Below, one piece after another: positions 2,659 to 30,477 of a DNA stretch of 62,595 nucleotides. The first letter of the stretch is position 1, and each line of letters opens with the position of its first letter. Both the position numbers and the translations under genes were made by a program. Under the pieces are notes generated by a model. The model saw only the letters and a program-made list of their open reading frames with translations. It did not search any database and was not told the origin of the DNA. Location: NCBI GenBank assembly GCA_002401725.1, contig NVTW01000009.1, forward strand, positions 32,258 to 94,852, written 5' to 3'. The stretch is from Gammaproteobacteria bacterium. GTDB lineage: Bacteria > Pseudomonadota > Gammaproteobacteria > Enterobacterales > Alteromonadaceae.

Positions 2659-2714
2659 CTTTTGCGTATAATACAGGGCTATTTTATGAATTTTGTATGT
2701 GTTGGAGTGGCTTA

Positions 2715-2999: not shown

Positions 3000-3053
3000 C
3001 TACTCAAATTGATTGTATAAAATACAATTACTTTAATAGTTAAGATAAAAACA

Positions 3054-3090
3054 TGAAAAAACGCATAACTTAATGGTTATGCGTTTTTTT
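3054..3090. terminator. bidirectional-looking intrinsic terminator/attenuator between rpoZ and spoT
   Basis: A-run, ACGCATAAC-ttaatg-GTTATGCGT 9-bp stem, then a T7 run. Confidence 0.5.
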
Positions 3091-3170
3091 ATGACTGTTT
3101 TTTATTGTTTGTGTTGGTATACTCAAAGCAGTGTTTGTCAGCTTTATTTCCTCATTTTCCGGAGTATTCG

Positions 3171-5291
3171 GTGTATCTTTTTGAACCACTAAAAGAATTT
3201 GTTTCAACTTATCTGTCAAAAGTACAAGTTGATTTATTAAAACAAGCTTACCTTGTTGCCCGCGAAGCACACGATGGACAAATGCGATCAAGCGGTGAAC
3301 CCTATATTACTCATCCTGTTGCAGTAGCACACAATCTTGCCAAAATGCACCTTGATCACGAAACCTTAATGGCGGCATTACTGCACGACGTTATTGAAGA
3401 TACTGAAGTAAGCAAAGAAGATTTGGCTAAACTATTTGGCAATACCGTCGCTGAATTGGTTGAAGGGGTAAGTAAACTAGACAAACTAAAATTTAATAAC
3501 AAGGAAGAAATGCAAGCTGAAAACTTCCGCAAAATGTTATTAGCTATGGTGCAAGACATCCGCGTTATTTTGATAAAACTCGCAGATAGAACCCATAACA
3601 TGCGCACTTTAGAGTCGCTTCGTCCTGATAAACGCCGCCGTATAGCGCGAGAAACGCTTGAAATTTATGCTCCCATAGCCAATCGTTTAGGTATTCACGA
3701 CATCAAAAATGAGCTTGAAGTTTTAGGCTTTGAAGCTTTATATCCAATGCGTTCTCGTGCTTTAAAATCAGCGATAAAACAAGCACGCGGTAATCGTAAA
3801 GAAATTATCAATAACATTATGGATGAAGTGCAAACCCGCCTTACTGAAACCGGCATTGACGCACAAGTTATTGGTCGTGAAAAACATTTATATTCTATAT
3901 ATCGCAAAATGTTAAACAAAGAATTAATGTTTAATGAAGTCATGGATATTTATGCCTTTCGAGTCATTGTTAAAGACAAAATTGATGATTGCTATCGCGC
4001 ACTCGGTGCGGTACATAATTTATTTAAGCCAATTGAAACTCGTTTTAAAGACTATATTGCTATTCCCAAAACCAATGGTTATCAGTCGTTACATACCTCA
4101 TTAATTGGCCCGCATGGTATTCCGGTAGAAATTCAAATTCGTACCCAAGACATGGATCAAATGGCCGACAAAGGTGTTGCCGCTCATTGGCTTTACAAAC
4201 AAGACGGTTCAAATACCGGCACCACCGCACAAATGAAAGCGCGCCGCTGGATGCAGAGCTTATTAGAATTACAACAAAGTGCCGGCAGTTCATTTGAATT
4301 TATTGAAAATGTAAAATCTGATTTATTCCCCGAAGAAATTTATGTATTTACTCCCGATGGACGCATTATTGAATTGCCCATGGGAGCTACAGCGGTTGAT
4401 TTTGCTTATGCAGTGCATACTGATGTCGGTAACTCTTGTGTTGGCGTAAAGGTTGATCGTAAGCCTTATCCCTTTAGCCAACCGCTTGATTCTGGTCAAA
4501 CGGTTGAAGTGATCACTTCACCTTCTGCTCGCCCTAATGCAACGTGGTTAAATTTTGTGGTAACCGCGAAAGCTCGTTTGCAAATACGAACTTATTTACG
4601 CTCACGCGAAAAAACTGAATCACACGCACTGGGTTTACGTTTATTAAGCCATGCGTTAGGGGCAACAAAATTAGAAGATATTGAGCAAGAAAAAATAGAT
4701 CAAGTTATTAGTGAAACCGGTAATAACAGCTTTGATGAATTATTGATTAATATTGGTTTAGGTAATGCTTTAAGCATAGGAATAGCGCGACGTTTAACCG
4801 GTGAATTTACTGATGATAAAACATTAGATGATGAAACTGATGACGATAGCAGTAAAGTAAAAATGCCCATAAAAGGCACCGAAGGCATGATGGTAAGTTA
4901 CGGTAAATGTTGTCGTCCAATTCCTGGTGATTCCATTGTTGCCTATTTGAGCCCAGGCAAAGGCTTGATGGTACATCAGCAAGGTTGTCGTAATATTAAA
5001 GGCCATGAGTCAGGCAAATTATTTCCGGTAAAATGGGATAAAGATATAGATCGCGAATTTATTGCCCGTTTACGTATTGTTATTATTAATCATCAGGGTG
5101 CTTTAGCTAAACTAACCAATGTAATAGCGCACTGTGAATCGAATGTACAGTCTTTAAATTCTGAAGAAAAAGACGCTAGTTTATATATCATCAATCTTGA
5201 AATAACTTGTCGAGATCGTATTCACCTTGCTGATATTATTCGAAAAATAAAAGTAATTATTGATGTGCAAAAAATAGTGCGCATTAAATAA
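3171..5291 (+). CDS. spoT: bifunctional (p)ppGpp synthetase/hydrolase SpoT
   Basis: (V)YLFEPLKEFVSTYL…AYLVAREAHDGQMRSSGEPYITHPVAVA parallels the E. coli SpoT N-terminus. HD, RelA/SpoT, TGS and ACT regions are recognisable. GTG 3171 has a GGAG 7 nt upstream. Confidence 0.92.
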   Translation: MYLFEPLKEFVSTYLSKVQVDLLKQAYLVAREAHDGQMRSSGEPYITHPVAVAHNLAKMHLDHETLMAALLHDVIEDTEVSKEDLAKLFGNTVAELVEGVSKLDKLKFNNKEEMQAENFRKMLLAMVQDIRVILIKLADRTHNMRTLESLRPDKRRRIARETLEIYAPIANRLGIHDIKNELEVLGFEALYPMRSRALKSAIKQARGNRKEIINNIMDEVQTRLTETGIDAQVIGREKHLYSIYRKMLNKELMFNEVMDIYAFRVIVKDKIDDCYRALGAVHNLFKPIETRFKDYIAIPKTNGYQSLHTSLIGPHGIPVEIQIRTQDMDQMADKGVAAHWLYKQDGSNTGTTAQMKARRWMQSLLELQQSAGSSFEFIENVKSDLFPEEIYVFTPDGRIIELPMGATAVDFAYAVHTDVGNSCVGVKVDRKPYPFSQPLDSGQTVEVITSPSARPNATWLNFVVTAKARLQIRTYLRSREKTESHALGLRLLSHALGATKLEDIEQEKIDQVISETGNNSFDELLINIGLGNALSIGIARRLTGEFTDDKTLDDETDDDSSKVKMPIKGTEGMMVSYGKCCRPIPGDSIVAYLSPGKGLMVHQQGCRNIKGHESGKLFPVKWDKDIDREFIARLRIVIINHQGALAKLTNVIAHCESNVQSLNSEEKDASLYIINLEITCRDRIHLADIIRKIKVIIDVQKIVRIK

Positions 5292-5294
5292 AAA

Positions 5295-5434
5295 CATGCC
5301 TATGCACTTGGCTCAGGATCGTCATTCTCGCAGTCTTTTAAGCGAGAATCTAGCTCAAAAAGCATGAGTTCTTCGATAAAAACGTCTCGAAGATGACGAA
5401 TATAATAAATACCTGAGTGATCTGCATAGGCATG
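5295..5434. repeat. ~140-nt imperfect palindrome in the spoT-ridA spacer
   Basis: CATGCCTATGCA (5295-5306) pairs perfectly with TGCATAGGCATG (5423-5434). Inner arms CTCAGG/CCTGAG and TCGTCAT/ATGACGA also pair. Confidence 0.6.
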
Positions 5435-5488
5435 AATAAAAATTAGTCATCCTATTATTTATTAACTATTTATAAGGAAATTATAAAA

Positions 5489-5878
5489 ATGAAATCTATC
5501 GTTAAAACCGAGCAAGCACCAAGCGCTATCGGCACTTATAGCCAAGCCGTAAAAGTTAACAGCACCGTTTATTTGTCAGGGCAAATACCGTTAGTGCCAG
5601 CAACAATGGAAATTGTTTCTACTGATTTTGCCGCACAAGCAGAACAAGTATTTAAAAATTTATCGGCCGTTTGCCAAGCTGCGGGGGGCGAAATTAACAA
5701 CATGGTAAAAGTAAATATTTTTATGACCGACTTAAACAACTTTGCCACCGTTAACGAAGTAATGAGTCGCTATTTTAACGAACCTTACCCAGCACGTGCA
5801 GCGATTGAAATATCAAAATTACCTAAAGGTGTTGATATTGAAATTGATGGTATAATGGAATTGCCGACCACTAATTAA
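5489..5878 (+). CDS. ridA: RidA/YjgF-family enamine/imine deaminase
   Basis: TEQAPSAIGTYSQAV…YLSGQIPL…PARAAIEISKLPKG is the typical RidA signature. Confidence 0.88.
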   Translation: MKSIVKTEQAPSAIGTYSQAVKVNSTVYLSGQIPLVPATMEIVSTDFAAQAEQVFKNLSAVCQAAGGEINNMVKVNIFMTDLNNFATVNEVMSRYFNEPYPARAAIEISKLPKGVDIEIDGIMELPTTN

Positions 5879-5951
5879 TTTTTAGCCTAAACACCCAGAT
5901 TATTGTCGGACTAAATTCCGACTAACGAATTCGTATAAACAAAGAAAACTT

Positions 5952-6659
5952 ATGACCCCAGATAGACTACAACGTATTAATAATATGCTTGATATGCGCC
6001 AACCAGAACTTACTGTATGTATGGAAGGCGTTCATAAAACTCATAACTTAGCCGCGGTGGTGCGTTCGTGTGATGCGGTTGGTGTAAGTGATGTGCATGT
6101 AGTGTGGAAAAATGAAGAAATGGAAGTACGCGGTGGCAGTGCTGCGGGTAGTCAAAATTGGATCAAAGTTCATAATTACAATAAAACGGCTGATGCTATC
6201 GCGGAATTAAAACGCCAAAATATGCAAGTGTTAGTGACTAATTTATCGAACACCGCGGTAGATTTTCGTGACATTGATTACACTAAACCTACCGCTATTA
6301 TTTTAGGACAAGAAAAGTTTGGTGCCTCAGAAGTTGCACTAGAGTTAGCCGATCAAGACATTATTATTCCTATGGTGGGTATGGTGCAATCACTTAATGT
6401 TTCTGTCGCTTGTTCAGTAACCTTGTATGAAGCACAACGCCAACGGCAATTAGCCGGTTTATACGAAACAGCGCGCATTGATCAAGCGCGCCGCCAGCAA
6501 GTATTGTTTGAAGGCGGCCATCCTATTTTTGCCGAAGCTTGCTTACGCAAAGGTTTACCTTTTCCGCACATTGATGAAGACGGACAAATTGTTGCCAGTG
6601 AACAATGGTGGCAAAAAATGCAAATGGATAAGTCAGCGTGGCAACATTTAGATGATTAA
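5952..6659 (+). CDS. trmH: tRNA (guanosine-2'-O)-methyltransferase TrmH (SpoU)
   Basis: SpoU motifs are present (HNLAAVVRSCDAVGV; IILGQEKFGAS; IPMVGMVQSLNVSVA). It holds the spoT-trmH-recG operon position as in E. coli. Confidence 0.85.
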   Translation: MTPDRLQRINNMLDMRQPELTVCMEGVHKTHNLAAVVRSCDAVGVSDVHVVWKNEEMEVRGGSAAGSQNWIKVHNYNKTADAIAELKRQNMQVLVTNLSNTAVDFRDIDYTKPTAIILGQEKFGASEVALELADQDIIIPMVGMVQSLNVSVACSVTLYEAQRQRQLAGLYETARIDQARRQQVLFEGGHPIFAEACLRKGLPFPHIDEDGQIVASEQWWQKMQMDKSAWQHLDD

Positions 6660-6661
6660 TC

Positions 6662-6786
6662 TTTACTCTTCATTCTTGAAATCTCAGCGTTATTGTCTTC
6701 ATTTTTCATCACAATCACTTAGTAAGCTAAGCTCACGTGACTCAGAACTTGACGGCTTAGCTGAGATCTCAATTATGTTGAGTAAA
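6662..6786. repeat. ~125-nt imperfect palindrome in the trmH-recG spacer
   Basis: TTTACTC (6662-6668) pairs with GAGTAAA (6780-6786). GAAATCTCAGC (6678-6688) pairs with GCTGAGATCTC (6760-6770). Confidence 0.5.
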
Positions 6787-6803
6787 CTACTGCGTAATTT
6801 TTG

Positions 6804-8939
6804 ATGAATAACCATTTACAACAGCCCACTAAACTAACCGACAAGCTTGATAATCTCGCTAAAACTCCCTTATCAGCACTTAAAGGTGTTGGCCCAAGTA
6901 TAGTCACTAAGCTTGAAAAAATAGGCTTATTATCGCTTGCCGATTTACTCTTTCATTTGCCGCTTCGTTATGAAGATAGAACGCGCGTTACCAGAATACG
7001 CGATTTAATGGCGGGTATTTCAACGAATATTATTGGCGAGGTAGTAAATAGCCAAATAGTTAATGGTAAACGCCGGATGTTAGTGGTAACACTCAATGAT
7101 GGTAGCGGTACTATTAATTTGCGATTTTTTCATTTTAGCGCCAGCCAAAAAAACAGCCTTGCTCTCGGCACAGAAATTCGTTGTTATGGTGAAATTAATC
7201 ACGGCGCGCGTGGTTTTGAAATTGTTCATCCTGAATATAAACGCCTAGATCAAGACCAAGCCATCACCCCTGTTGAAGAAACCCTCACCCCTGTTTACCC
7301 TACTACCGATGGTTTACGACAAATAACGCTACGTAATTTATCGGAACAAGCATTAAAGCGCTTAAACAATATTGAAGTCGAAGAATTATTACCACCTGAA
7401 TTTTGTCCTCACGGTTTAACGTTAACGCAAGCCCTTAAAATAGTGCATCGACCGCCGCCCGATGTTTCTATTAACTTATTAGAATTAGGTCGCCATCCAG
7501 CACAACTACGTTTAATAAAAGAAGAATTACTTGCACATAATCTAAGTATGTTAAAACTCCGCCAAAGTAGCGATGTTCATCCTGCGCGTTCTTTGGTTAT
7601 TGATAAAAAGCTTGATGAAAAATTTTTAGCTGGCTTGCCTTTTTCACCGACTAATGCCCAACAACGCGTAGTAAATGACATTCGCCTAGATCTTGCTAAA
7701 AGCCAACCAATGATGCGTTTGGTGCAAGGCGATGTTGGTTCAGGTAAAACATTAGTCGCCGCACTTACAGCATTAACTGCTATTAGCCAAGGTTTTCAGG
7801 TAGCGTTGATGGCACCAACAGAAATATTAGCAGAACAACATGCACTTAATTTTGCTCACTGGTTTGAACCACTAGGCATAAAAACCGGTTGGTTAGCCGG
7901 AAAAACTAAAGCCAAAGCACGCCGAGAAGCCTTAGCAACAATTGCCAGCGGCGAAATGCAAATGGTACTTGGCACCCATGCACTATTCCAAGAGCAAGTT
8001 AAATTTCATAATCTACAATTAATTATTATTGACGAACAGCATAGATTTGGCGTACACCAACGGTTATCGTTACGCGAAAAAGGCTCGCTCGACGGATATT
8101 ATCCTCATCAACTGATCATGACAGCAACACCTATTCCACGAACATTAGCGATGACCGCTTATGCCGATTTAGACACTTCAATTATTGACGAATTACCGCC
8201 AGGACGTACGCCAATAACCACCGTAGCGATCAGTGATAACCGCCGTGATGATGTGATCGAAAGAATTCGCCAAGCCTGCTCTAGCCCAGTTAAAGATGGA
8301 AAAAAGCGTCAAGCTTATTGGGTATGTACCTTAATTGAAGAATCTGAAGTGCTTGAATGCCAAGCTGCCGAAGATACCGCCACTTATTTGCAAGCGCAAT
8401 TAACCGAGTTAGTCATTGGATTAGTGCATGGCAGAATGAAAGCGGCAGAAAAACAAGCGGTGATGGATCGTTTTAAACAGGGTGAAGTTGATTTGTTAGT
8501 GGCAACTACAGTTATAGAAGTAGGCGTTGATGTGCCCAATGCCAGCTTAATGATAATAGAAAACCCCGAACGTTTAGGCTTAGCACAGCTACATCAACTC
8601 CGTGGTCGAGTTGGGCGCGGCGCGGTAGCCTCACATTGTGTACTAATGTATAAAAGTCCGTTATCAAAAACTGCCACTAAACGCATTAATGTGTTGCGCG
8701 AAAGTAATGACGGCTTTTATATCGCGCAAAAAGATCTAGAAATTCGCGGTCCCGGTGAAGTACTAGGCACCAAACAAACCGGCTTAGCGAATTTAAAAAT
8801 TGCTGATTTAGCACGAGATGCTGAACTTATTCCTGAAGTGCAAGAACATGCTTATTTGTTGATCAAACAATATCCGCAACATAGCCAAGCCATTATAGAT
8901 CGTTGGTTAATAAATAAAGAAAAATACGCAAACGCATAA
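6804..8939 (+). CDS. recG: ATP-dependent DNA helicase RecG
   Basis: LLFHLPLRYEDRT wedge motif, GDVGSGKT Walker A, DEQHRFG box, QLHQLRGRVGRG motif. Confidence 0.95.
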   Translation: MNNHLQQPTKLTDKLDNLAKTPLSALKGVGPSIVTKLEKIGLLSLADLLFHLPLRYEDRTRVTRIRDLMAGISTNIIGEVVNSQIVNGKRRMLVVTLNDGSGTINLRFFHFSASQKNSLALGTEIRCYGEINHGARGFEIVHPEYKRLDQDQAITPVEETLTPVYPTTDGLRQITLRNLSEQALKRLNNIEVEELLPPEFCPHGLTLTQALKIVHRPPPDVSINLLELGRHPAQLRLIKEELLAHNLSMLKLRQSSDVHPARSLVIDKKLDEKFLAGLPFSPTNAQQRVVNDIRLDLAKSQPMMRLVQGDVGSGKTLVAALTALTAISQGFQVALMAPTEILAEQHALNFAHWFEPLGIKTGWLAGKTKAKARREALATIASGEMQMVLGTHALFQEQVKFHNLQLIIIDEQHRFGVHQRLSLREKGSLDGYYPHQLIMTATPIPRTLAMTAYADLDTSIIDELPPGRTPITTVAISDNRRDDVIERIRQACSSPVKDGKKRQAYWVCTLIEESEVLECQAAEDTATYLQAQLTELVIGLVHGRMKAAEKQAVMDRFKQGEVDLLVATTVIEVGVDVPNASLMIIENPERLGLAQLHQLRGRVGRGAVASHCVLMYKSPLSKTATKRINVLRESNDGFYIAQKDLEIRGPGEVLGTKQTGLANLKIADLARDAELIPEVQEHAYLLIKQYPQHSQAIIDRWLINKEKYANA

Positions 8940-9044
8940 TATTCAATTTTAATGATCTAATTTTCAAAAAAATCTTTATCTTATTTGTTGAAATACTCTG
9001 CTTGCAGTAAACTATCGACAATTTAAACATTCAGTGAAATAAAG

Positions 9045-9833
9045 ATGTCTATGTCACCTCAACTTCCAGAAGATAGTAAATCAAAAAACCAAGGCAGCTC
9101 TACCCACTTTGGTTTTAAAACTGTCAATAAAACTGATAAGGCCTCGATGGTTGCCGATGTTTTTCATTCGGTTGCTAAGCAATATGACATCATGAATGAC
9201 TTAATGTCTTTTGGTGTTCATCGTTTATGGAAGCGTTTTACTATTGACGCAAGTGGCGTGCGCCCTGGCAATAAAGTGTTAGATTTAGCTGGCGGCACCG
9301 GTGATTTAACCGCTAAATTTTCGAAATTAGTTGGTAAAGAAGGCAAGGTGGTTTTGGCTGACATTAATAGCTCAATGCTGAATGTCGGTCGCGATAAATT
9401 ACGCGACAAAGGCTTAGTACAAAATATAGAATATGTACAAGCCAACGCTGAATATTTACCCTTTGACGACAACACTTTCGATATTATTACCATTGCTTTT
9501 GGTCTGCGTAATGTTACCGACAAAGACAAAGCCTTAGCCTCAATGTACCGTGTATTAAAACCCGGTGGTCGTTTATTGGTGTTAGAATTTTCTAAACCAG
9601 AGCATGAACTACTCAATAAAGCTTATGATTTTTATTCTTTCAATATTTTACCAAAAATAGGTGAACTAGTGGCTAAAGATGGTGAAAGCTATCAATATTT
9701 AGCGGAATCAATTCGTATGCATCCTGATCAAGAAACGCTCAAAGGCATGATGAATAATGCCGGCTTTGAACAAACCAGTTATCACAACTTAACCGGCGGC
9801 GTAGTTGCTTTACATAAAGGTTATAAATTTTAA
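9045..9833 (+). CDS. ubiE: ubiquinone/menaquinone C-methyltransferase UbiE
   Basis: THFGFKTV…[30 protein letters not shown] closely parallels E. coli UbiE. SAM motif [10 protein letters not shown]. Confidence 0.95.
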
Positions 9834-9838
9834 TTATT

Positions 9839-10525
9839 ATGAATGCTATTGTCAATAAAGCAGTCACCAAAATAAGTGACCAATTAATGTTTAAACAAGT
9901 GTTAGCAACGGCGCTTGAAAAAACAATCAATAAGGTATTAAGTCTTAATATTCATGATAATAGCGCTTTAACTGACTTGTCAGAGCAACGTTTAACAATG
10001 GTACTTTCAGAACTTGCTTTTCCCTTAACGCTTAGTGTTTACCAACAACAAATACTGGTCACCAGTACTGACGATAATTGCAATGAAAGCTCAATAAATG
10101 AATGCATCATTAAAACCAGTATTGGCACGTTAAAAGAACTACAACAAACCCAACAATTAACCGAGTTAATTAAACAAGACAAGCTCGATATTTATGGCGA
10201 TATAAAAATAGCGCAACAATTTGCCAGCCTAGCGCAAACATTAGAAATTGATTGGCAAAGCGAATTAGCCAAACATATTGGCGATTTTGCTACTTATAAA
10301 TTAACCCGCGCAGGAAAAACCTTAGCGAAAAAATTTAGTTTTTTAAAAAAACAAGTGCAAGCCGATAGCAGCGAATATATAGTGCACGAACAAAAATTAG
10401 TAATCACTAAACATCAGCTTAATGAATTTAATCAAGCTGTTAGTCAAGTTAGTGAGCAAACAGATAAATTAGCACAACGTTTGGCGGCAATTAAAGCAGC
10501 ATCACTTAAAATAAATCAAGGATAA
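9839..10525 (+). CDS. ubiJ: ubiquinone biosynthesis accessory factor UbiJ (SCP2-domain, YigP-like)
   Basis: Called mainly from its position between ubiE and ubiB. Size and hydrophobic N-terminal domain are consistent with UbiJ. Confidence 0.65.
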   Translation: MNAIVNKAVTKISDQLMFKQVLATALEKTINKVLSLNIHDNSALTDLSEQRLTMVLSELAFPLTLSVYQQQILVTSTDDNCNESSINECIIKTSIGTLKELQQTQQLTELIKQDKLDIYGDIKIAQQFASLAQTLEIDWQSELAKHIGDFATYKLTRAGKTLAKKFSFLKKQVQADSSEYIVHEQKLVITKHQLNEFNQAVSQVSEQTDKLAQRLAAIKAASLKINQG

Positions 10526-10528
10526 TAC

Positions 10529-12178
10529 GTGCGTATTCAACGGCTTTATAAAATACTAAAAACATTTTTACAGTACGGTTTAGACGAATTAGTACCCAAA
10601 AAAATGTTACCTTGGTACGCCAAATTAGCCCGTTTTAGCTTGTTTTGGCTGCGTAATAAACATCAAAACGAAAGTACTGCACAACGATTTCGTTTAGCCA
10701 TAGAAACATTAGGCCCGGTGTTTATTAAGTTTGGCCAAATGTTATCCACTCGTCGCGATTTATTACCCCCTGATTTTTCTAATGAATTAGCCCTGCTGCA
10801 AGATAAAGTAACCCCTTACGATGGCGAACAAGCAAAACAGTTAATCATTCGCGCGATTGGCGAAGAACGCTTTAACCAACACTTTACCGATTTTAACAGC
10901 ACACCCTTAGCTTCTGCGTCTATTGCGCAAGTACATACAGCAACACTGAATATTGATGACACCCAGCACGATATAGTGATCAAAGTATTACGTCCAAATA
11001 TTAGAGAAATCATTTTAGCTGACATCAAAGTAATGTCGTTATTTGCTGGCATCGTTGCCCGTTGGCTACCCGATGGTAAACGCTTACGTCCGGTAGAAGT
11101 AGTTGAAGAATATCGCAAAACCATTATTGATGAACTTGATCTAAATCGCGAAGGCGCCAACGCAATTCAACTAAGACGTAATTTTTCGCAAGGCACCCCG
11201 GAAAGTAAAAAATATGATCACGTTTTATATGTGCCTGAAATTTACAGTGAGTTTTCCCATAAAAACGTACTCGTAATGGAACGAATTTACGGTATTGGTG
11301 TTGGTGAAATAGACGAATTACAGCGCCGCAATGTCAACATGAAATTACTTGCAGAACGTGGCGTGGAAGTATTTTTCACCCAAGTTTTTCGCGATAGTTT
11401 TTTTCATGCCGACATGCATCCGGGTAATGTTTTTGTTGATGCTACTAATCCTGACGATCCCACTTGGATCGCGATTGATTGCGGCATTGTTGGCACATTA
11501 AACAAAGAAGATAAACGTTACTTAGCTGAAAATTTTGTTGCCTTTTTTAATCGTGATTATCGTAAAGTGGCACAATTGCACGTTGACTCAGGCTGGGTAC
11601 CTAAAAATACCAGTGTTGATGAATTCGAATTTGCCATTCGTACCGTGTGCGAACCTATTTTTAATAAACCGTTAGCCGAAATTTCTTTCGGGCAAGTATT
11701 AGTTAACTTATTTAACACCGCACGACGCTTCAATATGGAAGTGCAGCCACAGCTAGTTTTATTACAAAAAACGCTGTTATATATTGAAGGCTTAGGACGC
11801 CAGCTTTATCCACAACTCGACTTATGGCAAACCGCAAAACCCTTTTTAGAAAACTGGGTAAAAGAACAAATGGGTGTAAAAGCGGTATTCAAAAAAATTA
11901 AAGACAACCTACCATTTTGGAATGAAAAACTCCCCGAAATGCCCGACTTACTTTACGACTATTTAACTACTGGTAAGCACCATCATCAACAGCAAAGTGA
12001 GTTATTAACACAACTTGCCAACCAAAACCAACGTCAACAACGCAACATCATTTTTAGTGTGCTGGGCGTCGGTTTTTTAGTGGTAAGTTCTGTTTTATAT
12101 AGTCAACAACAAATAATGATTGCAGGTGTTTGTGCCGCAATAAGTGCTCTTTTTATGCTTTCGTCGTTACGGAAATAG
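10529..12178 (+). CDS. ubiB: ubiquinone biosynthesis regulatory kinase-like protein UbiB
   Basis: [19 protein letters not shown] and [18 protein letters not shown] resemble E. coli UbiB. ABC1-kinase motif HADMHPGN. C-terminal TM helices. GTG start. Confidence 0.92.
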
Positions 12179-12355
12179 CATGAGCTTAAATAAATTATTT
12201 TTTTGTTTTCATACTTTTTTACTGACAACTTACCAACATACAGATAAATTTATTTTAAAAAATTAGCTAAAACTTGATATCCATCAAAAACACTTTCAGA
12301 TTATTTAGTTAGTCTTATTGTCCCACCAATCTTTTTAACGTGTGTAATTGGGCTA

Positions 12356-12616
12356 ATGACAACAAAAACTGAAAGCTATATAAAGATGTTAATGGCATCT
12401 AACATGCTACAACCCGTCGACGACAGAGCAGCAGAACTCTATGGGCGAATCGATGCAAAAGAGCGTATGGCAGAATATTTACAAGACCTTTGCCCATCAG
12501 TACTTGGATTGAATGTTACCACTGAGCAATGCGTAAAATTTGAAAAAAGCTGCGGGATTAATTTTTTAGAAATAGCTGAAGTGATTATGGCAAGACAAGA
12601 TGAACTAGACGAATAA
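12356..12616 (+). CDS. hypothetical small protein (shares an FE.xCGINF motif with prophage ORF 29391-29870)
   Basis: 86-aa ORF in the accessory island. No family recognised. Confidence 0.4.
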   Translation: MTTKTESYIKMLMASNMLQPVDDRAAELYGRIDAKERMAEYLQDLCPSVLGLNVTTEQCVKFEKSCGINFLEIAEVIMARQDELDE

Positions 12617-12843
12617 ACGTCCCAGCATTACTTAAAACAGCAAATCAACATAGACAATATCAAGCCAATTCAGTTAAAAGTATAAACATATTATCAAATG
12701 ATGAAACATTAAGGTTACAGGGCTTTTACGAAAGATAGTGACCAATGATCATAATTTTACACCTGTAGTGCTTGTCATTCATTTATTGTTAGTATACAGT
12801 TTGTTACCTTAGATGTAATAAACCGTATACCAATAGGTAAGTA

Positions 12844-13371
12844 ATGAGTAAGTCTGAAAAACTCACATCGGCTATAGCCAAATCAATAGCCTCTGGAGGT
12901 AGTGTCTTTGATATTGCTGAACTTGCCTATTTTTTAGGTGAGCAGGTAACACCAAAACTTAACAAGTTTTTATCTGATTGTGTTAAAAAGGGCACACTGA
13001 TAAGAGTAGCAAAAGGCATATACACCAGCTCAATTACTCCTCCCGATCTATCAAAAGCACTTTTTAATGTTGCCAAAAAGCTAAGAGCTGATTTTTTTAA
13101 CTATATTAGCCTTGAAAGCCAACTAAGCCATACGGGTGATATATCGCAAATCACCATGGATAGGTTAACAATTATGACTAAAGGAAGAAAAGGAGAATTT
13201 GATACAGTTTACGGTATCGTCGAATTTATTCATACTAAGAAAACCCTAGCGCAATTAGAAAATGATGTGTACTTTGACTTCGATATTAAAATGTTCCGAG
13301 CAAGTACAAGTCGGGCAATAGCGGATCTAAAAGCTTGTCGACGCAATACCCATATGCTGGAGAAAAGTTAA
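12844..13371 (+). CDS. AbiEi-like antitoxin (type IV TA, N-terminal wHTH)
   Basis: VFDIAELAYFLGE…L..CVKKGTLIRVAKGIYTS resembles the AbiEi_4 N-terminal domain. Its stop overlaps the next ATG (TAATG). Confidence 0.55.
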   Translation: MSKSEKLTSAIAKSIASGGSVFDIAELAYFLGEQVTPKLNKFLSDCVKKGTLIRVAKGIYTSSITPPDLSKALFNVAKKLRADFFNYISLESQLSHTGDISQITMDRLTIMTKGRKGEFDTVYGIVEFIHTKKTLAQLENDVYFDFDIKMFRASTSRAIADLKACRRNTHMLEKS

Positions 13372-13739
13372 TGCTATCGCGTTACATCAATCAAATTCTA
13401 AAGCAGCACCCTGAATATGCAGGAATAATCCCTGTGATTGAAAAAGAAATTTTACATCATGACATCATGCATGTTCTCGTAAAGCAAGGAGCCTTACAAC
13501 AGCTAACATTCATTGGTGGAACATCGCTCAGACTCTGTTATAACAGCTCTCGGCTTTCAGAAGATCTAGATTTCAATGGCGGCCATAACTTCAAGCCATC
13601 AGATTTCAATGGACTTGAAAATGATATTCAGCACTACCTTTCAAAAAAACACGAAGTTAAGGTATGGGTAAATAAACCGAATCAAGAAAAACAAGGTAAT
13701 TATCAGACGTCAACTACTTTGGCCGACCGGTCAAGTTAA
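13371..13739 (+). pseudogene. AbiEii/DUF1814 nucleotidyltransferase toxin, N-terminal ~120 aa only (3'-truncated)
   Basis: FIGGTSLRLCYNSSRLSEDLDF matches the nucleotidyltransferase GG[ST]…R.S.D[IL]DF motif. Full-length family members are about twice this size. Confidence 0.6.
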
Positions 13740-13794
13740 TTGTCGCCTAATAATAGACCCTAAAACATTTTGGAGTGCTGAGATTACAGCCAAA

Positions 13795-14205
13795 ATGAGC
13801 GTAGATTTCTGCCAAGAAATATATCCAAGTCAATTATTCCTTGAAGAGGTAAAAAAAGGAGAGCCTTCAAAACAATTTGCCAAAGTAAAAAACAATCACA
13901 ACAATGAAGAGGGCGTCAGTTTTAATTCAGTTAAAATCGGAGCCGCGATACAAATGATCGATGATTGGTATAGTGACGGAGTATCTAAGCCTATACGCGC
14001 TCATGAGTATGGAGCTGATAGCGAATTAATCATTGCACGACGTCCTCCTCAATCTAAACTAGATTTCTATTCATTACTCTCTAACTCTGAAAAGTATTTA
14101 AATGTACTATCGACCGTAAAAAACAACCAAATTCCCCCTGAGATTTTGTATGTTTTTTCTATTCTTATAAAAGGCGGAATGTTTCAAAAAAAGGGAGAAC
14201 ATTAG
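13795..14205 (+). pseudogene. cas7f: Cas7f (Csy3) C-terminal fragment; the frame is open and possibly homologous from ~13750
   Basis: QEIYPSQ…IGAAIQMIDDWY…SKLDFYSLL…ILIKGGMF aligns with PA14 Csy3 QEVFPSQ…IGNALRTIDTWY…QKLDFYTLL…NLIRGGVF. The N-terminal two-thirds of the protein are absent. Confidence 0.75.
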
Positions 14206-14262
14206 TGTGCGTTATTATTTTATGATTCGATTTTTACCGTCCAAGGCAACATCCCTTTATTA

Positions 14263-14820
14263 ATGGGGCGGTGTATTTCAACGTTGCACAACTATATATC
14301 AAAGAATAAAATTCAAGATTTAGGTGTTAACTTTCCGGATTGGTCTGCGTCTTCAATAGTCCAAGTTATTTCTTTCATTCATAAGGACACTAGAACCTTA
14401 GATGACCTTAAAAAGCAGGCTTATTTTATTGATATGCTTGATTGCGGGTTCTTCAAAATAAGTGAGACACTTTTAGTTCCAAGCACTTGCCAGGAAGTTC
14501 GTTTTGTTAGAAATCAGTCAATTTCAAAATTATTTCAAGGCAGTGCTAAAAGGAGGTTAAAACGTATTAAAAAGAGAGCGGAGAGCCAGGGACGTTCTTT
14601 TAATCCCCAAAAAACAATACCTCCAAAAGAAGTCGATATGTTTCATAGAGTTTTAATGAACAGTTCAAGTAATCAACACGATTTTATAATACACATTCAA
14701 AAAGAAAGTAATATGGAAATATCTACACCTTGCTTTAATAGCTATGGTCTTTCAACGAATCAGTTATTTAAAGGAACAGTACCAGACTTATCAAAACTAG
14801 TTTTAGAAAATAATTTTTAG
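14263..14820 (+). CDS. cas6f: Cas6f (Csy4) CRISPR endoribonuclease; the N-terminal strand is encoded in another frame upstream (14207-14263), so probably inactivated
   Basis: STLHNY…LGVNFPDW…VRFVRNQS…AKRRLKRIKKRA…FNSYGLS…GTVP aligns with PA14 Csy4 GKLHQA…IGVSFPDL…RQVSRVQA…ERLRRRLMRR…FTCYGLSKGGFVPWF. Confidence 0.8.
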   Translation: MGRCISTLHNYISKNKIQDLGVNFPDWSASSIVQVISFIHKDTRTLDDLKKQAYFIDMLDCGFFKISETLLVPSTCQEVRFVRNQSISKLFQGSAKRRLKRIKKRAESQGRSFNPQKTIPPKEVDMFHRVLMNSSSNQHDFIIHIQKESNMEISTPCFNSYGLSTNQLFKGTVPDLSKLVLENNF

Positions 14821-14935
14821 ATATTAACCATTGGATCGAAAATAGACTTAAACGAAGAAAAAATGAGGTTTTTTACAAAAAAGAACATGCGGTTCGCATG
14901 AACTTTTAACCAATATGGCTATATTTTAAAACTGA

Positions 14936-15223
14936 ATGGGGGGAATAATGGAGCAAACAAATAAGACTGAGCTAGAAAGTAATGAATCTAATTTTCCAAA
15001 CATGGCGCAGTGTTGCGGGAAGTTTTTTGACGAAAATGAAAAGTCCTATTTATTTTTGACATTAGTTGCTTGGGCTGGCTCAGATATTAAAGCTACAGCC
15101 TGGTTTAAATCTGAGACCATTTCAGCATTTGGCGGTAAAACAGCACTTGAACTTTGCAAAAACAATCAACCAGATGCCGTGATTAAATACATTCGCCACA
15201 TAGAGCAAGGAGGGTTTGCATAG
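14936..15223 (+). CDS. DUF2384 (Xre/MbcA/ParS-type antitoxin C-terminal domain) protein, orphan
   Basis: C-terminus WFKSETISAFGGKTALELCKNNQPDAVIKYIRHIEQGGF fits the DUF2384 pattern (W…lgG.tPlel…g…v…L..ie.G). No RES-type partner follows. Confidence 0.55.
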   Translation: MGGIMEQTNKTELESNESNFPNMAQCCGKFFDENEKSYLFLTLVAWAGSDIKATAWFKSETISAFGGKTALELCKNNQPDAVIKYIRHIEQGGFA

Positions 15224-15293
15224 TGTATTCTTATATATTAAAGCTACAAGTTGAACAGAGCAAAAAAAACTTTCTGATAAGGATGGATATGGT

Positions 15294-15506
15294 ATGAACG
15301 ATGCTGCTAATAATGAAACAGCACAACATGCTATGCAAAAGCTTTTTGACGCCAACGAAAACATGGCAACAATTGCTCTAACTAAAAATGGAGTTGTAGC
15401 GTACCATTTCGGAGAGAACGGTGGGATGGCTATAAATCCAGCGTGGGCAGAAATTGTCATTAACGCTGTTAAAGAACTGTCTAAATTAGAACAGAATGAT
15501 GGGTAA
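15294..15506 (+). CDS. hypothetical 70-aa ORF ending on the first CRISPR repeat (may be leader, not coding)
   Basis: ORF only. The TAA stop at 15504-15506 abuts/overlaps repeat 1. Confidence 0.3.
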   Translation: MNDAANNETAQHAMQKLFDANENMATIALTKNGVVAYHFGENGGMAINPAWAEIVINAVKELSKLEQNDG

Positions 15507-15653
15507 TAACCTGCCGAATAGGCAGCTGAAAATTATAATACCATTACATCATATCGAAAAACAATATGAACTACCGAATAGGTAGCTGAAGAAAAAAACA
15601 ATCGATTCGAAGTTTATGTAAACCATAACCCTGCCGAACAGGCAGGAAAAGCC
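15506..15653 (+). CRISPR. mini CRISPR array, type I-F-like: 3 repeats (28 nt) and 2 spacers (32 nt)
   Basis: R1 ATAACCTGCCGAATAGGCAGCTGAAAAT (15506-15533). S1 TATAATACCATTACATCATATCGAAAAACAAT. R2 ATGAACTACCGAATAGGTAGCTGAAGAA (15566-15593). S2 AAAAACAATCGATTCGAAGTTTATGTAAACCA. R3 TAACCCTGCCGAACAGGCAGGAAAAGCC (15626-15653). Stems start at 15511, 15571 and 15631, an exact 60-nt period. The core resembles the I-F repeat GTTCACTGCCGTATAGGCAGCTAAGAAA. Confidence 0.8.
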
Positions 15654-15680
15654 TTTTATATGGAATTAATAGGCTTTTTG
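15647..15680 (+). terminator. rho-independent terminator closing the array transcript
   Basis: AAAAGCCT (15647-15654) pairs with AGGCTTTT (15671-15678), followed by a T-run. Confidence 0.55.
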
Positions 15681-15717
15681 TAATTTTATTACATCCAACA
15701 AATAGATAGCAAACCAA

Positions 15718-15822
15718 TTTGTCAAAGTATGGTTAAGTAGTTTTGACAACGTATGGGTTTATAGGTTTTGTAAGTCATTGTTTTATAACACCGCCATTTG
15801 ACAGAGTATGGATTTAGCTACA
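15718..15822. mobile_element. Tn7-like transposon left end (three TnsB-type binding repeats, terminal …ACA)
   Basis: TTTGTCAAAGTATGGTTAA (15718-15736), TTTGACAACGTATGGGTTT (15742-15760), TTTGACAGAGTATGGATTT (15797-15815), then AGCTACA ending at 15822. Read inward this is TGTAGCTAAATCCATAC…, the Tn7-family 5'-TGT tip with dispersed left-end-type sites. Confidence 0.62.
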
Positions 15823-15893
15823 AAAAACATCACAATTTTAGATGAGAATGCTGCTAATTCTCATTTCGCTCTTTATTAGGAACATTTTACCGT

Positions 15894-17821
15894 ATGCGCG
15901 TTTCCACCTTTTCTCGTTTATCTGCGATTGCCATAGGCATTTTTATCATTCTTTTTATTGGTACTATGTATCAAATTTCTACTACGCTAACAAAAAGTAA
16001 AATTCAACTCGCTAATTATCAACAATTAAAATCATTAGCGACCATTGACTTTTATCGTACTATTGCAATTTATTTGCAGCATGGTGACGCCAGTTTACTC
16101 AATAAAGCTGAACATCAGCTTGACCGTATTATTAATATTACAGCACGTATTGGTATTAAATCGTTCGAACAAAACTTAAATATCCAAGTGATTCAATTAA
16201 AAAGGGATTTAAAACAAAAATTTCGTGCTATGGGTAAATTAAGTGGTGATCCATATATTTTAATCAAGAACAACGAACAAGGTCTGATCTCGTTAAATAC
16301 TGAACTGCAAAACTACGCACAAAACAGTACAGAACTGGCCAGTAAAGAACAAAAAGTATATCTTAATATCACTCAAAATATCGCCAAGCAATACTTCACG
16401 CCAGAGAACACTTATTTTCAACTAAATCCATAGATACCCGTGATATTGATAATAAAATAACTCAACTAATAGTACTAATATCCCAATTAAAGAAGTTACC
16501 TCTGCTCGGTATCTACCCTGCCGTAGAAAATGATGATGATGAATTATTACTTGGTGAAGAAGATAATAGCGATCTGAGTGAAGATGCAATAAACGAACTA
16601 TCCTCTTTAGCACAGCGTTATCATGGTGAAATTGCTAATACCATCAAGCTCACTTCTCAAAAACGAAATGGTTTAGAATTATTAACAAGTTCTGTAGCGG
16701 CTATTGAACACTACATCCTACAAGCGGAAAAAGAAATAAATCAACAACAAGATCACGTAAATCAACTATTAAAATCTATAATCAGCGTTTTATTGGCATT
16801 TCTCATTGTTTTTCTTGCGTCAAATTATGGGCTAATGCGTTCAGTAGTACTTAACCCTTTACGTAAATTACGCGACAGTTTTGTTCAACTTGATCAACAA
16901 GGACAAGTAGATAACATTTTGGGGATCAATCCAAAAACTGAATTGGGACAAATTGCTAGTAGTTTTAATAAATTAGTCAACAAACTTGCTGAAGATGATA
17001 AACAAAAAGCTCATCAACTCAATTTAGTTTCGAATGCTTTACAGTCAATGGAAAATCAAGCTGAGCATATCCTTCACTCGTCACACAGTACTACCGGACA
17101 CCTTAGCGATGTTCGCACCATAATGACCACACTAACCACAGTTACCAATACGGTAAGTGCCTTGTCTCAGCAAGTAGTTGACAATGCCCAAGCTACACAA
17201 CTAGCCATGACTAAAAGTCAATCTCAAGTAAATCAAGTGATTGCAGCAAGTAATTCTACCAATGTTGCGACCATTTCTGCGCAAAAATCTATTCAATCTT
17301 TAGGCGATTCTGTCGACAGTGTCAGTAGTATTGTTGGTGTGATCAGCGCTATAGCCGATCAGACAAATTTACTCGCCTTAAATGCCGCCATTGAAGCGGC
17401 GCGAGCGGGTGAACATGGTCGTGGTTTTTCGGTGGTTGCTGACGAAGTAAGAAAATTAGCAGGTAAAACTCAGGAATCATTACAGCAAGTCAGTAAACGT
17501 TTAGAAAATTTACAAACTGCTAGCCAAGCTTTAGAAAATAACATGCAAGGAATAGAGCAAGCGTCTAGTCAGCAGCAAACAATTTCACAACAACTAAAAA
17601 ACAATGCTGAAGAGGTACTAAATCAAGCGCTAACCTCAGCTTCTGTTGCCCATACTACAATGCAGCATATTACCAATCAGCAACAGCAATTCATTAGTTT
17701 TGAGTCGGCCATCAACAAAGTAAATAACGAAGTAAATCAATCCAGTGATCTGGCTAAAAACATTTCTAATGATGTTGTACGCCAAGTTAGTGACATAAAT
17801 CAAACCTTGATTGTTGCTTAA
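15894..17821 (+). pseudogene. methyl-accepting chemotaxis protein interrupted by one frameshift (or a sequencing error)
   Basis: The N-terminal TM and sensor ORF stops at 16433. The frame carrying TM2/HAMP/signalling domain (…[32 protein letters not shown]…) is open from 16367 and continues to 17821. Confidence 0.8.
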
Positions 17822-20096: not shown

Positions 20097-20573
20097 ATGC
20101 GTGCTGCTGGCTGCTATCAAGCAGATTCAGTGTTTTATACTGGTAAACGTTATGCTCGCGCCGCAAAATTTAGTACCGATACCAAAGACATATTGACTAA
20201 AATACCTTTAGTTCATAGTGAAAACCTATTCAACATTAAAACAGCTAACATGAGAATAGTTTGTGTCGATTTAGTTGAAGGAGCTACACCCTTACCTGAA
20301 TATAAACACCCAAAGCATGCTCTATACATTTTTGGACCAGAAGATGGCAGCATAGATCAATCAATAATAGATCAAGCTGATGATATTGTTTACGTACCTA
20401 CCATAGGTTGTATGAACTTAGCAGCAAGTGCAAATGTGGTGCTGTATGATCGGTTAGCTAAAATGCCAACTTTAGAAGTAAGCGGTGATGAGTTAATTAA
20501 AAAAAGTAGAGATACAAATAATAAAACTAAGGTAAAGGTTTTTATTGGGATAATAAAGAAGCCGGAACAGTAA
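20097..20573 (+). CDS. SpoU/TrmH-family RNA methyltransferase (the conserved N-terminal motif lies upstream of the first ATG)
   Basis: YIFGPEDGSI and PTIGCMNLAASANVVLYD are SpoU motifs 2 and 3. The in-frame upstream stretch (20019-20096) encodes VFIGLINPKSPSNVGSV, which is motif 1, but has no canonical start. Confidence 0.75.
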   Translation: MRAAGCYQADSVFYTGKRYARAAKFSTDTKDILTKIPLVHSENLFNIKTANMRIVCVDLVEGATPLPEYKHPKHALYIFGPEDGSIDQSIIDQADDIVYVPTIGCMNLAASANVVLYDRLAKMPTLEVSGDELIKKSRDTNNKTKVKVFIGIIKKPEQ

Positions 20574-24524: not shown

Positions 24525-25049
24525 TTATTTAATTGTTTGTGCGCGTTCTAATTCAGAACTAAACGGCTTAATAACAAATTCTTCTTTTTGACTAATGCTT
24601 ATACCCGGAATATTAAGAGCAACGTCTTTTTCATTAAGCAAAGCCGGTTTATCAATTTCTTGCTTATCACGAAGAAACCGATTTAATCCTAATGACTTAA
24701 TCATTTTGATCACAGCGTCAACGCCTTTTACAGAAACTTTAGGCGGGGTAACTCGCCAACTAATTTCGCCCGTACTTAATTTTGCTGTTTTTGCATCACC
24801 TTTCAGCATATTTAAACGATTAACAGAACAATAAGCTTGCACACCATTAAATAACTCATTTATCTTGTCATTTAATGGCTTAGCTTGAGTTTCAAACTCT
24901 TTTTTAATAACGGTAAGTTTGTCATTCATTGTCCCTTCTAAAACATCAACTTGGCGATCTAACTCCCCTATTTGTTGAATAAATTCTTCTACCTCTAATA
25001 AGCTTAATGCTGCCGGTAAATCAGTTGCTTTAATACGTTTTGTAGCCAT
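24525..25049 (-). CDS. gam: Gam-like host-nuclease inhibitor
   Basis: Coiled N-terminus followed by KTAKLSTGEISWRVTPPKVSV…NRFLRDKQEIDKPALL, the Mu Gam family pattern. Confidence 0.82.
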   Translation of the reverse strand: MATKRIKATDLPAALSLLEVEEFIQQIGELDRQVDVLEGTMNDKLTVIKKEFETQAKPLNDKINELFNGVQAYCSVNRLNMLKGDAKTAKLSTGEISWRVTPPKVSVKGVDAVIKMIKSLGLNRFLRDKQEIDKPALLNEKDVALNIPGISISQKEEFVIKPFSSELERAQTIK

Positions 25050-25069: not shown

Positions 25070-26215
25070 TTAAACTTTATGAACTAATTTTTCAGTAATT
25101 TTTGTTTCGCCTATGTGTGCTGCCGCATTCATGACCCGGGCAAGCCAAGAATTTATTGACAGCGGATAACTTAAATCGGTAGGCATATCGGGTTGATGGC
25201 TGTTTAAACCCATTTGCGTTCTACCCGCGCATTTACCGCGAATAGCATGAATGGCATCTACAGTAAAAATAGTGCTGGCATCAATACCAACCGACTTGAA
25301 TTTATGCGCCACATAATCGGGTAAATCTCTACCCAATGGTTGCACTGTTAATTGATTACAGCGCCAGGCAAATTCACGCACATAACTACCTTGCAATATT
25401 TTTTTAAGTTCGGTTTGACCAATTAATACCACCCCCATCACCCGAGAAAACCCAGCGGTTAATTCCCAAATGCGTTTGATCAACTTAATAACCGAAGTGG
25501 GTAAATCGTGTGCTTCGTCAATAATTAAAATATGTTGTTTGCCAATACCCGCCGACTCAACCAAGGCATCTTCAATCATGGCATCACGCTGCTCACTACT
25601 CATGCCACCATTTTTAAGCTCTAATGCTCTACAAATAGCTTGGCTAATACCTTCGGCGGTTATTTTTTTGCGATCTAAACGGCGTGGCTCAATAATAATG
25701 AGATCAGGGTTTTTAGTGCGCATTTGCTCTATAAACAAACGGCGCAATATGGTTTTGCCGCTACCACATTCCCCTATTAACGCGATCATTGAACCCGCAT
25801 GTGCAGCCGTGTTCATTTCTTCTAACAACATACGATTATGACGAGTTAAAAAAACGTCGTGCACCGTTTGTATTTCATTTTGAAACGGATCACGTTTTAA
25901 GTTAAAAAACTCACGAGTAGCCATAGTTAACATTTCAATCTCCAATTCTTCAGTTTCATTCGTTGACTCATTATTTTTTTTGACGGCTAATTGCTGTTTA
26001 AATAATCCTCGCAACAACTCACTACTAGCCCCTTGTTTTTGTAAATAGCTTTTGATCTGCGTTTTAGTTTTGGTTACATCACAGTTTTTTGGCCATTGGT
26101 TATAATTAATTATCCGGCTAATGCTAGATGCGCTTAACGAACCCGTTAATTTTTTTGCTAGTGTTACTTGCTTAATACTTAACTGGTTTAATACAAACCC
26201 CAAATGAAGTGCCAT
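25070..26215 (-). CDS. MuB-like AAA+ transposition ATPase
   Basis: N-terminal HTH, Walker A GECGSGKT, Walker B ILIIDEAH. It sits directly downstream of the transposase. Confidence 0.85.
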   Translation of the reverse strand: MALHLGFVLNQLSIKQVTLAKKLTGSLSASSISRIINYNQWPKNCDVTKTKTQIKSYLQKQGASSELLRGLFKQQLAVKKNNESTNETEELEIEMLTMATREFFNLKRDPFQNEIQTVHDVFLTRHNRMLLEEMNTAAHAGSMIALIGECGSGKTILRRLFIEQMRTKNPDLIIIEPRRLDRKKITAEGISQAICRALELKNGGMSSEQRDAMIEDALVESAGIGKQHILIIDEAHDLPTSVIKLIKRIWELTAGFSRVMGVVLIGQTELKKILQGSYVREFAWRCNQLTVQPLGRDLPDYVAHKFKSVGIDASTIFTVDAIHAIRGKCAGRTQMGLNSHQPDMPTDLSYPLSINSWLARVMNAAAHIGETKITEKLVHKV

Positions 26216-30418: not shown

Positions 30419-30459
30419 GTTTGAGCTGGACTCAAACTCGAATTAAATCTCAATTGAGA
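30419..30459. promoter_or_regulatory. candidate operators in the c/ner divergent control region
   Basis: GTTTGAG-ctgga-CTCAAAC (30419-30437) and the perfect palindrome TCTCAATTGAGA (30448-30459). Both share TTGAG/CTCAA half-sites. Confidence 0.45.
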
Positions 30460-30477
30460 CGAGTATTACATCACAAA

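Follow-up and report, generated by a model that had tools for sequence, protein, structure and literature searches.

A left arm beside an MCP gene: very probably the relic of an rsmJ-homing type I-F3b CRISPR-associated Tn7-like transposon

The DNA analyzed here, called the window throughout, comprises 62,595 nucleotides of contig NVTW01000009.1 (positions 32,258 to 94,852; GenBank assembly GCA_002401725.1, a gammaproteobacterium placed in the Alteromonadaceae). Between a ubiB locus and an MCP gene, window positions 13750-15822 contain a partial cas7f gene, a frameshifted cas6f, two small open reading frames (ORFs), a CRISPR array of three repeats and two spacers, a terminator and a Tn7-like left end. 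We consider this segment to be, with high probability, a non-functional relic of an rsmJ-homing type I-F3b CRISPR-associated Tn7-like transposon (CAST). The element is of a known kind, represented by Tn7479, Tn7480 and the Shewanella CASTs, and not a novel kind of system; it belongs to the rsmJ-homing I-F3b group by descent and is a relic by function. An earlier note on this DNA had recognized a Cas7f piece, Cas6f, the array, a terminator and a Tn7-style end as the decayed left arm of a type I-F3-like CAST next to ubiB. All five features are present, with the corrections given below. The features are as follows, L016 and similar handles denoting loci retrieved for comparison:

13750-14205, + strand: 5'-truncated cas7f (csy3), residues 195-343 of 345
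14207-14820, + strand: cas6f (csy4) pseudogene, with a 185-amino acid (aa) ORF from 14263 that lacks the N-terminus
14936-15223, + strand: orf95, small accessory gene that this CAST clade keeps between cas6 and array
15294-15506, + strand: orf70, clade-specific small ORF, 86% aa identity to its L016 counterpart
15506-15653, + strand: mini CRISPR array, three repeats and two spacers with an exact 60-nt period
15506-15533, + strand: R1, near-typical repeat
15534-15565, + strand: S1, spacer
15566-15593, + strand: R2, atypical repeat with the 5'-handle variant GAAGAA
15594-15625, + strand: S2, rsmJ-homing spacer, AAAAACAATCGATTCGAAGTTTATGTAAACCA
15626-15653, + strand: R3, degenerate terminal repeat, 14/28 identical to the Vch repeat
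about 15644-15686, + strand: intrinsic terminator of the array, hairpin and T-run, -11.6 kcal/mol
15717-15822, + strand: Tn7-like left end, three ~20-nt predicted TnsB-type sites and an 8-bp terminal inverted repeat (TIR)
15717-15736, 15741-15760 and 15796-15815, + strand: predicted TnsB-type sites
15815-15822, + strand: the 8-bp TIR, TAGCTACA, the true terminus

The ORF at 13795-14205 matches the Pfam family Cas_Csy3 (PF09615) over positions 215-328 of 328 (E 4e-24) as well as TIGR02566 (E 2e-26) and PADLOC Cas7f (E 3e-36). Homology to the intact Cas7 of L016 covers 13750-14196 (residues 195-343 of 345, 84.6% aa identity) and thus starts upstream of this ORF, so that the fragment described earlier as the C-terminal third of Cas7f/Csy3 amounts to about 43% of the protein. 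The ORF at 14263-14820 matches Cas_Csy4 (PF09618, E 3e-18) and TIGR02563 (E 5e-22), in agreement with the Cas6f/Csy4 assignment in the note, to which we add that the gene is a pseudogene. Compared with both L001 and L016, it has a 1-nt deletion near 14247 that shifts the frame after codon ~13, and residues 1-15 are encoded at 14207-14251, out of frame with the rest. The same frameshifted allele is found in five contigs of other assemblies. Between cas6 and the array, the note had overlooked two small ORFs, at 14936-15223 and 15294-15506; they are common to the window, L016 and L008, and other small genes take their place in L001. The orf95 product, which shares 88% aa identity with L016 orf112 and is also present in L008, weakly resembles the C-terminal domain of Xre/MbcA/ParS antitoxins (PF09722, E 3.5e-4, under the family cutoff), and orf70 matched no family in the profile scans.

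A protein search with Cas6 returned 21 homologues, five of which (P0005, P0006, P0007, P0009 and P0021) were examined in six genomic contexts. Each of these five closes a tniQ-cas8/5-cas7-cas6 operon without cas1 or cas2-3 in the 10-kb flanks, which fixes the ancestry of the window copy, in which the operon has shrunk to cas7 residues 195-343 and cas6 with its frameshift. L016 (ENA OJAZ01001638), with L001 the closest of the intact relatives, is collinear with window 13751-15837 at 87% DNA identity and reads tniQ-cas8/5-cas7-cas6-orf112-orf70-three-repeat array-left end. L001 shows 89% DNA identity over cas7-cas6 and over the stretch from the array to the left end, and its left end adjoins an orthologue of the MCP gene that follows the left end in the window. 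A more distant relative, L024, carries a 100-aa HTH_19/HTH_3 gene upstream of tniQ.

Profile matches to Cas7f and Cas6f do not by themselves separate I-F3 from I-F1, and the segment could in principle be the remnant of an ordinary type I-F1 immunity locus that happens to lie beside unrelated direct repeats. The chance of this is practically negligible, as every relative examined has tniQ joined to its cas operon and lacks cas1 and cas2-3. The window repeats are heterogeneous, follow the atypical-repeat pattern of I-F3b and end in a self-targeting terminal spacer, and the direct repeats are a TIR and TnsB sites that form a right end beside tnsA in L031 (see below). A canonical I-F1 locus, with cas1 and cas2-3 beside csy1-4 and uniform repeats, is therefore not what the window copy represents. 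The relatives likewise show no canonical I-F locus devoid of Tn7 genes, which the note had named as the outcome that would speak against a CAST; they have tniQ-cas operons, and L031 has tnsABC. The proposal of a decayed I-F3 left arm is thus borne out by the tniQ operons, by an array and left end collinear with intact elements, and by the right end and tnsABC of L031.

The array matches its earlier description, with repeats at 15506, 15566 and 15626 that each fold into a 5-6 bp I-F hairpin (z -3.6 to -5.0). The repeat core CTRCCGAAYAGGYAG was observed three times against 0.02 expected. The R2 stem has an A-U pair at the position of a G-U pair in the relatives. The note had called R2 close to the Tn6677 repeat; the two are identical at 22/28 positions (R1 at 21/28), and the repeat sequence quoted there does occur in VchCAST papers. 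An Rfam scan of 12100-16000 matched no family and hence gave no CRISPR-DR call. The terminator that was expected after the array is present as a hairpin and T-run, and its position is conserved in the relatives; a simple terminator scanner did not pick up the window copy.

The first spacer has no credible plasmid or phage match (E ≥ 0.9). Its best match within the window, 24/32 at 20198-20229 (shuffle p ~0.008), lacks a CC protospacer-adjacent motif (PAM) and is probably due to chance; the ORF that holds it (20097-20573) encodes a SpoU/TrmL-like methylase without the first ~18 profile positions. In the closest relatives, the first spacer is conserved as CGAGGTCGAAATGGAGCTGGAGAAGAAATAAC with a few substitutions (L016 6365-6396, L001 13065-13096 and L008 918-949), which suggests a second shared target. 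Spacer 1 of the window is unrelated to it.

A Tn7-style end with three repeats within 170 nt of the array, as proposed in the note, is confirmed, and its terminus can now be defined as the TIR at 15815-15822. The motif TTGACAnnGTATGG occurs at 15719, 15743 and 15798 and nowhere else in the window (0.24 copies expected). The AAAAA that follows (15823-15827) is probably the copy of the target duplication that has survived. When metagenomes were scanned with the TIR and first TnsB site (TGTAGCTNNNNCCATACNNTGTCAA), L031 was recovered, which comes from the same metagenome as L016 and shows the opposite end of such an element. It reads, in order, the rsmJ 3' end with the protospacer, 46 nt, ATAAA, TGTAGCTA with four contiguous TnsB-type sites, tnsA-tnsB-tnsC (PF08722, rve/Mu-transpos_C and TniB, respectively) and cargo. 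The left-end flank of L016 starts with the same ATAAA that stands before the right end in L031, and this sequence is the 5-bp target duplication. L029 provides a second rsmJ-right-end junction, so that the TIR and sites of the window recur as a right end beside rsmJ in two loci. Four packed sites at the right end and three spread sites at the left end reproduce the classical Tn7 asymmetry. No inverted copy of the left-end motif, and thus no right end (right-end pattern TGTAGCTAAAnCCATAC), is present in the window; a match to a looser pattern at 59906 (- strand) was dismissed, as it lies inside a prophage ORF.

The target of the element is recorded in spacer 2, whose sequence the window shares without change with L016, L001 and L008; the diverged L003 departs from it at positions 12, 18, 24 and 30 as well as close to the 3' end. 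A scan of 185,579 species genomes with AAAAACAATCGNTTCGANGTTTA found eight loci in Pseudoalteromonas, Shewanella and one Alteromonadaceae metagenome-assembled genome (MAG). In the six intact arrays among them (L005-L008, L011 and L012), the match is the last spacer, with a variant repeat before it and a degenerate repeat after it, and all three arrays whose upstream genes were scanned (L007, L011 and L012) carry tniQ-cas8/5. The other two loci, L009 and L010, keep no more than a fossil repeat-spacer unit. This terminal-spacer layout with atypical repeats holds for 9/9 intact arrays examined (L001, L003, L005-L008, L011, L012 and L016). At two Shewanella loci, the spacer lies just past a gene that ends in ...TKKNRFDVYVKAAMV* and is rsmJ (PF04445). 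The Shewanella homing spacers (AAAAACAATCGnTTCGAnGTTTA) differ from their own rsmJ only at multiples of 3, as a wobble-diverged copy of the last codons would. Spacer 2 likewise matches the last rsmJ codons of relatives at 24-26 of 32 positions, with nearly all mismatches at each third or sixth position (L018 protospacer 2543-2574, 25/32, mismatches 3, 6, 12, 18, 27, 30 and 31; L031, 26/32, mismatches 6, 12, 15, 18, 27 and 30). Petassi, Hsieh & Peters (2020) listed rsmJ among the attachment sites of the I-F3b branch, which has its homing spacer in terminal position between atypical 'private' repeats; Tn7479 (Psychromonas sp. RZ5) and Tn7480 (Colwellia polaris) home to rsmJ (Roberts et al. 2022, PMC9723613), and 44 Shewanella CASTs are located there (PMC12452197). 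A reading of spacer 2 as a tRNA 3' end, prompted by a terminal ACCA, was rejected by hand, the T-arm being unpaired.

An empty attachment site, L018, was found by a search with the N-terminal part of the MCP protein and consists of rsmJ, 111 bp and the MCP orthologue. The left-end flanks of L001 and L016 (ATAAATACGTCA...TTATGTAACC) align to it from 2620, 46 nt past the protospacer. L017, a further context with an MCP homologue, is uninformative, as rsmJ is missing upstream. The fossil units at two of the Shewanella loci lie directly at rsmJ (L009 3984-4110, - strand, Shewanella sp. Isolate11; L010 5280-5400, + strand, Shewanella sp. DAU334). Both read rsmJ stop, a few nt, degenerate repeat, rsmJ-homing spacer, terminal repeat and terminator, and neither a repeat array nor a left-end motif was seen in the 8-kb loci, in which cas genes were not searched for. 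They resemble CAST fossils reduced to a minimum that have stayed at the attachment site, with a target-guide gap of ~25-50 nt.

The host genes on either side of the relic, and the segment that separates it from ubiB, are:

10529-12616, + strand: host genes ubiB (10529-12178) and orf86 (12356-12616), last syntenic block, outside the element
12617-13750, + strand: 227 nt of non-coding DNA, abiEi (12844-13371) and truncated abiEii (13335-13739)
15894-17821, + strand: flanking host MCP gene, which comes right after rsmJ in the empty site

The note had taken this geometry as what homing downstream of ubiB would give, which would make ubiB a new attachment gene and the ubiB-MCP interval a shrunken element. 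It is true that ubiB is a conserved gene, that 1.6 kb separate it from the cas7 fragment on its right and that it is oriented as an attachment gene should be. Nevertheless, this explanation is hardly credible. Spacer 2 matches rsmJ and has no above-chance match in the window (none at ≤3 mismatches; the best ungapped match, 20/32, is equaled or exceeded in 98% of shuffles), neither a right end nor a protospacer is found near ubiB, and the left end adjoins the gene that follows rsmJ in the empty site. Host synteny also extends past ubiB. L028 is collinear with window 2020-12616 in the order gmk-rpoZ-spoT-ridA-trmH-recG-ubiE-ubiJ-ubiB-orf86, with similarity ending at the orf86 stop codon, and L019-L021, L026 and L027 are collinear with 8964-12613. 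In seven relatives' loci, ubiB-orf86 is followed by unrelated host genes, the synteny breaking directly after orf86, and none of the UbiB-based contexts has AbiE, rsmJ or the MCP gene downstream of ubiB. Since synteny runs through orf86 and then gives way to unrelated genes, ubiB is a secondary neighbor and not the attachment gene. The window UbiB is Colwellia/Thalassotalea-like, and the related genomes are Colwelliaceae-like.

In the segment between orf86 and cas7, abiEi is intact (NCBIfam TAA_AbiEi, NF047376, 212 bits against a cutoff of 150; PADLOC AbiEi, E 3e-58). Only the first ~38% of abiEii remains (profile positions 3-108 of 282), its homology ends at ~13692, and the breakpoint with cas7 lies between 13693 and 13750. 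An AbiE pair of intact AbiEi and AbiEii is thus absent; what is left is an orphan antitoxin and a toxin cut at the cas7 junction. The segment may be former CAST cargo, which would imply an internal deletion and a second event, or it may be a separate island, which would imply a single deletion or rearrangement through rsmJ.

Two abrupt breakpoints around 1.1 kb without a homologue, in a contig from a MAG, could also reflect an assembly artefact, in which case the contig would be chimeric at 12.6-13.75 kb and the element intact in the organism. This is most improbable, as the same junctions are found in other assemblies: 12000-16600 is matched at 100% identity by L013, and 13477-16600 at 99.97% by L015, which stems from a second sample. 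The independently deposited assemblies L013, L014 and L015, which represent at least two samples, share the junctions and the cas6 frameshift, and the frameshift is seen in 5/5 contigs with this allele, which is evidence against a chimera. The adjoining MCP gene is also frameshifted, consistent with real decay. Its frameshift lies near 16388-16391 (ORFs 15894-16433 and 16793-17821) and is absent from the uninterrupted L001 orthologue; the same split occurs in L013-L015.

No TnsA, TnsB, TnsC, TniQ or Cas8/5 is encoded anywhere in the window, as judged by tblastn with the relatives' proteins (for TnsABC from L031, no hit at E ≤ 0.01), in line with what the note had reported. Cas1 and Cas3 families had no match among the window ORFs scanned, which did not include all small prophage ORFs, and those ORFs that reach 900 aa or more (975, 947 and 1701 aa) code for a regulator, a tape-measure and a tail-fibre protein. 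By tblastn, rsmJ is absent from the window, the spacer itself giving a 9-aa echo. Of the features that define a CAST, the window copy thus lacks tnsABC, a full tniQ-cas operon and a right end and retains the array architecture, the left end and the homing spacer, the last recognized through the relatives' rsmJ. The lack of tnsABC makes it a relic of the CAST family and not a functional member.

A history is proposed from the relatives and the published I-F3 mechanism; the anatomy, the homology, the match of the spacer to rsmJ and the relatives' empty site and right end are observed, and how many deletions or rearrangements took place, and in which order, is inferred. In the intact element, Cas6 would have cleaved the array transcript at the repeat hairpins, and a TniQ-Cascade complex of Cas8/5, Cas7 and Cas6, carrying the terminal CRISPR RNA (crRNA) of spacer 2 with its private repeats, would have bound the last rsmJ codons (K-K-N-R-F-D-V-Y-V). 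TnsABC would then have inserted the element 46-51 bp downstream of the target with the right end toward rsmJ, an insertion that would have set the cas operon, array and left end against the next host gene, MCP. This lineage would later have been stripped of rsmJ and the right end, of tnsABC and any cargo, of tniQ and cas8/5, and of cas7 codons 1-194. The remnant would then have become fused to the truncated abiEii and, further left, to ubiB-orf86, and the cas6 frameshift would have come later. With one end and no transposase, the relic should be unable to move; it is also predicted to be incapable of building Cascade and probably could not process its own crRNA. Given a single end, no transposase, Cas8/5 or TniQ, the loss of 57% of Cas7 and a frameshifted Cas6, we judge it to be an inert fossil.

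Several points weigh against this reading. In 4/4 rsmJ genes inspected (L018 2541-2542; L031 ~11541-11542, - strand; L009; L010), the protospacer is preceded at its 5' side by TG or CT, where the canonical I-F PAM would be CC, and the match between spacer 2 and rsmJ concerns the rsmJ of relatives, not that of the host itself. The stretch 12617-13750 has no DNA or translated similarity to any fetched locus, CAST loci included. Inactivity is inferred from the sequence, and the truncated Cas6 ORF does start at a methionine, Met20. Finally, a second I-F or CAST system elsewhere in the MAG could use the crRNA in trans.

The last point leads to the alternative that the relic has been retained for action in trans, either by lending its private rsmJ guide to another CAST or I-F system of the cell or by conferring Tn7-type target immunity through its three TnsB sites. 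The three hairpins are intact, R2 having an A-U pair in its stem where the relatives have G-U, and there is no damage to the terminator, orf95, orf70 or left-end sites. In addition, spacer 2 is 100% identical to that of the relatives, compared with ~88% identity in the flanks. Such conservation can nevertheless stem from an ancestor that was functional until recently, the 62.6 kb show no partner system, cas6 and the adjoining MCP gene are decaying, and no nearby attachment site is left to protect. Retention in trans therefore appears very unlikely. If true, it would mean that a dead transposon had yielded a domesticated decoy or immunity locus that guides or blocks incoming related CASTs.

About 6 kb to the right of the CAST relic, the window holds a Mu-like transposable prophage (21700-62595), with the following genes:

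24525-25049, - strand: Gam
25070-26215, - strand: MuB-like ATPase
26233-28032, - strand: transposase
29391-29870, - strand: CII-like
30421-30954: repressor-like
terminase, portal, capsid 41918-44275
47961-50804: tape measure
52343-57448: tail fibre

A trio of ORFs at 25-29 kb (297, 599 and 381 aa) was considered, on account of size, as tnsA/B/C and rejected, as PHROGs and Pfam identify a Mu-like transposase, a MuB-like ATPase and Gam, and the TnsABC tblastn was negative. Transposable phages can cause adjacent deletions and rearrangements. No link between this prophage and the CAST breakpoints was found.

The main value of the analysis is a correction: a supposed new attachment gene vanishes once the guide is read, as the spacer points to rsmJ. 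The surroundings of a decayed mobile element may mislead, and the homing spacer remains a reliable record of where the element aimed. Stages of CAST decay are also documented, namely a left arm alone with the attachment gene lost (window), a single repeat-spacer unit beside rsmJ (L009 and L010) and a left end cut past the second TnsB site (L008). In L008 (Alteromonadaceae MAG DT_4, 1100-1215), bfd and bacterioferritin genes come next, and this locus is one more member of the CAST clade that has undergone partial decay or rearrangement. Nothing specific turned up when the literature was searched for CAST relics described before. Both ends of a close relative were obtained from one marine metagenome, the right in L031 and the left in L016, the cargo between them not being assembled, and the pair is testable as an integrase. 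The understanding of how CASTs work is unchanged by these results.

Among named systems, Tn6677/VchCAST of Vibrio cholerae (I-F3a, attachment genes guaC and yciA) shares the overall machinery and the repeat family with the window element, yet belongs to the other branch, uses another attachment gene and has a different TnsB-site sequence. I-F3a elements have their homing guide in a unit with regulation of its own and not as the terminal spacer of a single array (Petassi 2020). The I-F3b branch (Petassi, Hsieh & Peters 2020), which includes the Aeromonas salmonicida S44 element and uses ffs and rsmJ, has the homing spacer last, as in the window. It also shares a penultimate repeat that differs in the 5'-handle region, a strongly degenerate terminal repeat, a short array, the lack of an adaptation module and the placement of cas genes and array at the left end. 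The region in which I-F3b elements carry a ~100-aa C.Csp231I-type Xre regulator (between tnsABC and tniQ) and a tniQ promoter motif is deleted in the window, and the window clade differs from I-F3b in the extra small ORFs orf95 and orf70 between cas6 and the array.

The Shewanella rsmJ CASTs (PMC12452197) and the fossils L009 and L010 use the same homing spacer family as the window. These fossils keep rsmJ and retain one repeat-spacer-repeat unit, whereas the window copy has lost rsmJ and keeps cas remnants and a left end. Tn7479 and Tn7480 are complete elements of 34-50 kb that transpose in E. coli (PMC9723613), in contrast to the window copy, which is a left arm of ~2.1 kb with a truncated cas7 and a frameshifted cas6 and without right end, tnsABC, tniQ, cas8/5 or rsmJ. 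As judged from their published description, these two are otherwise like the window element: they have rsmJ as attachment gene, a mismatched self-targeting terminal spacer, an atypical repeat, an 8-bp TIR and repeated ~18-20-bp TnsB sites, and they reside in related marine Alteromonadales hosts.

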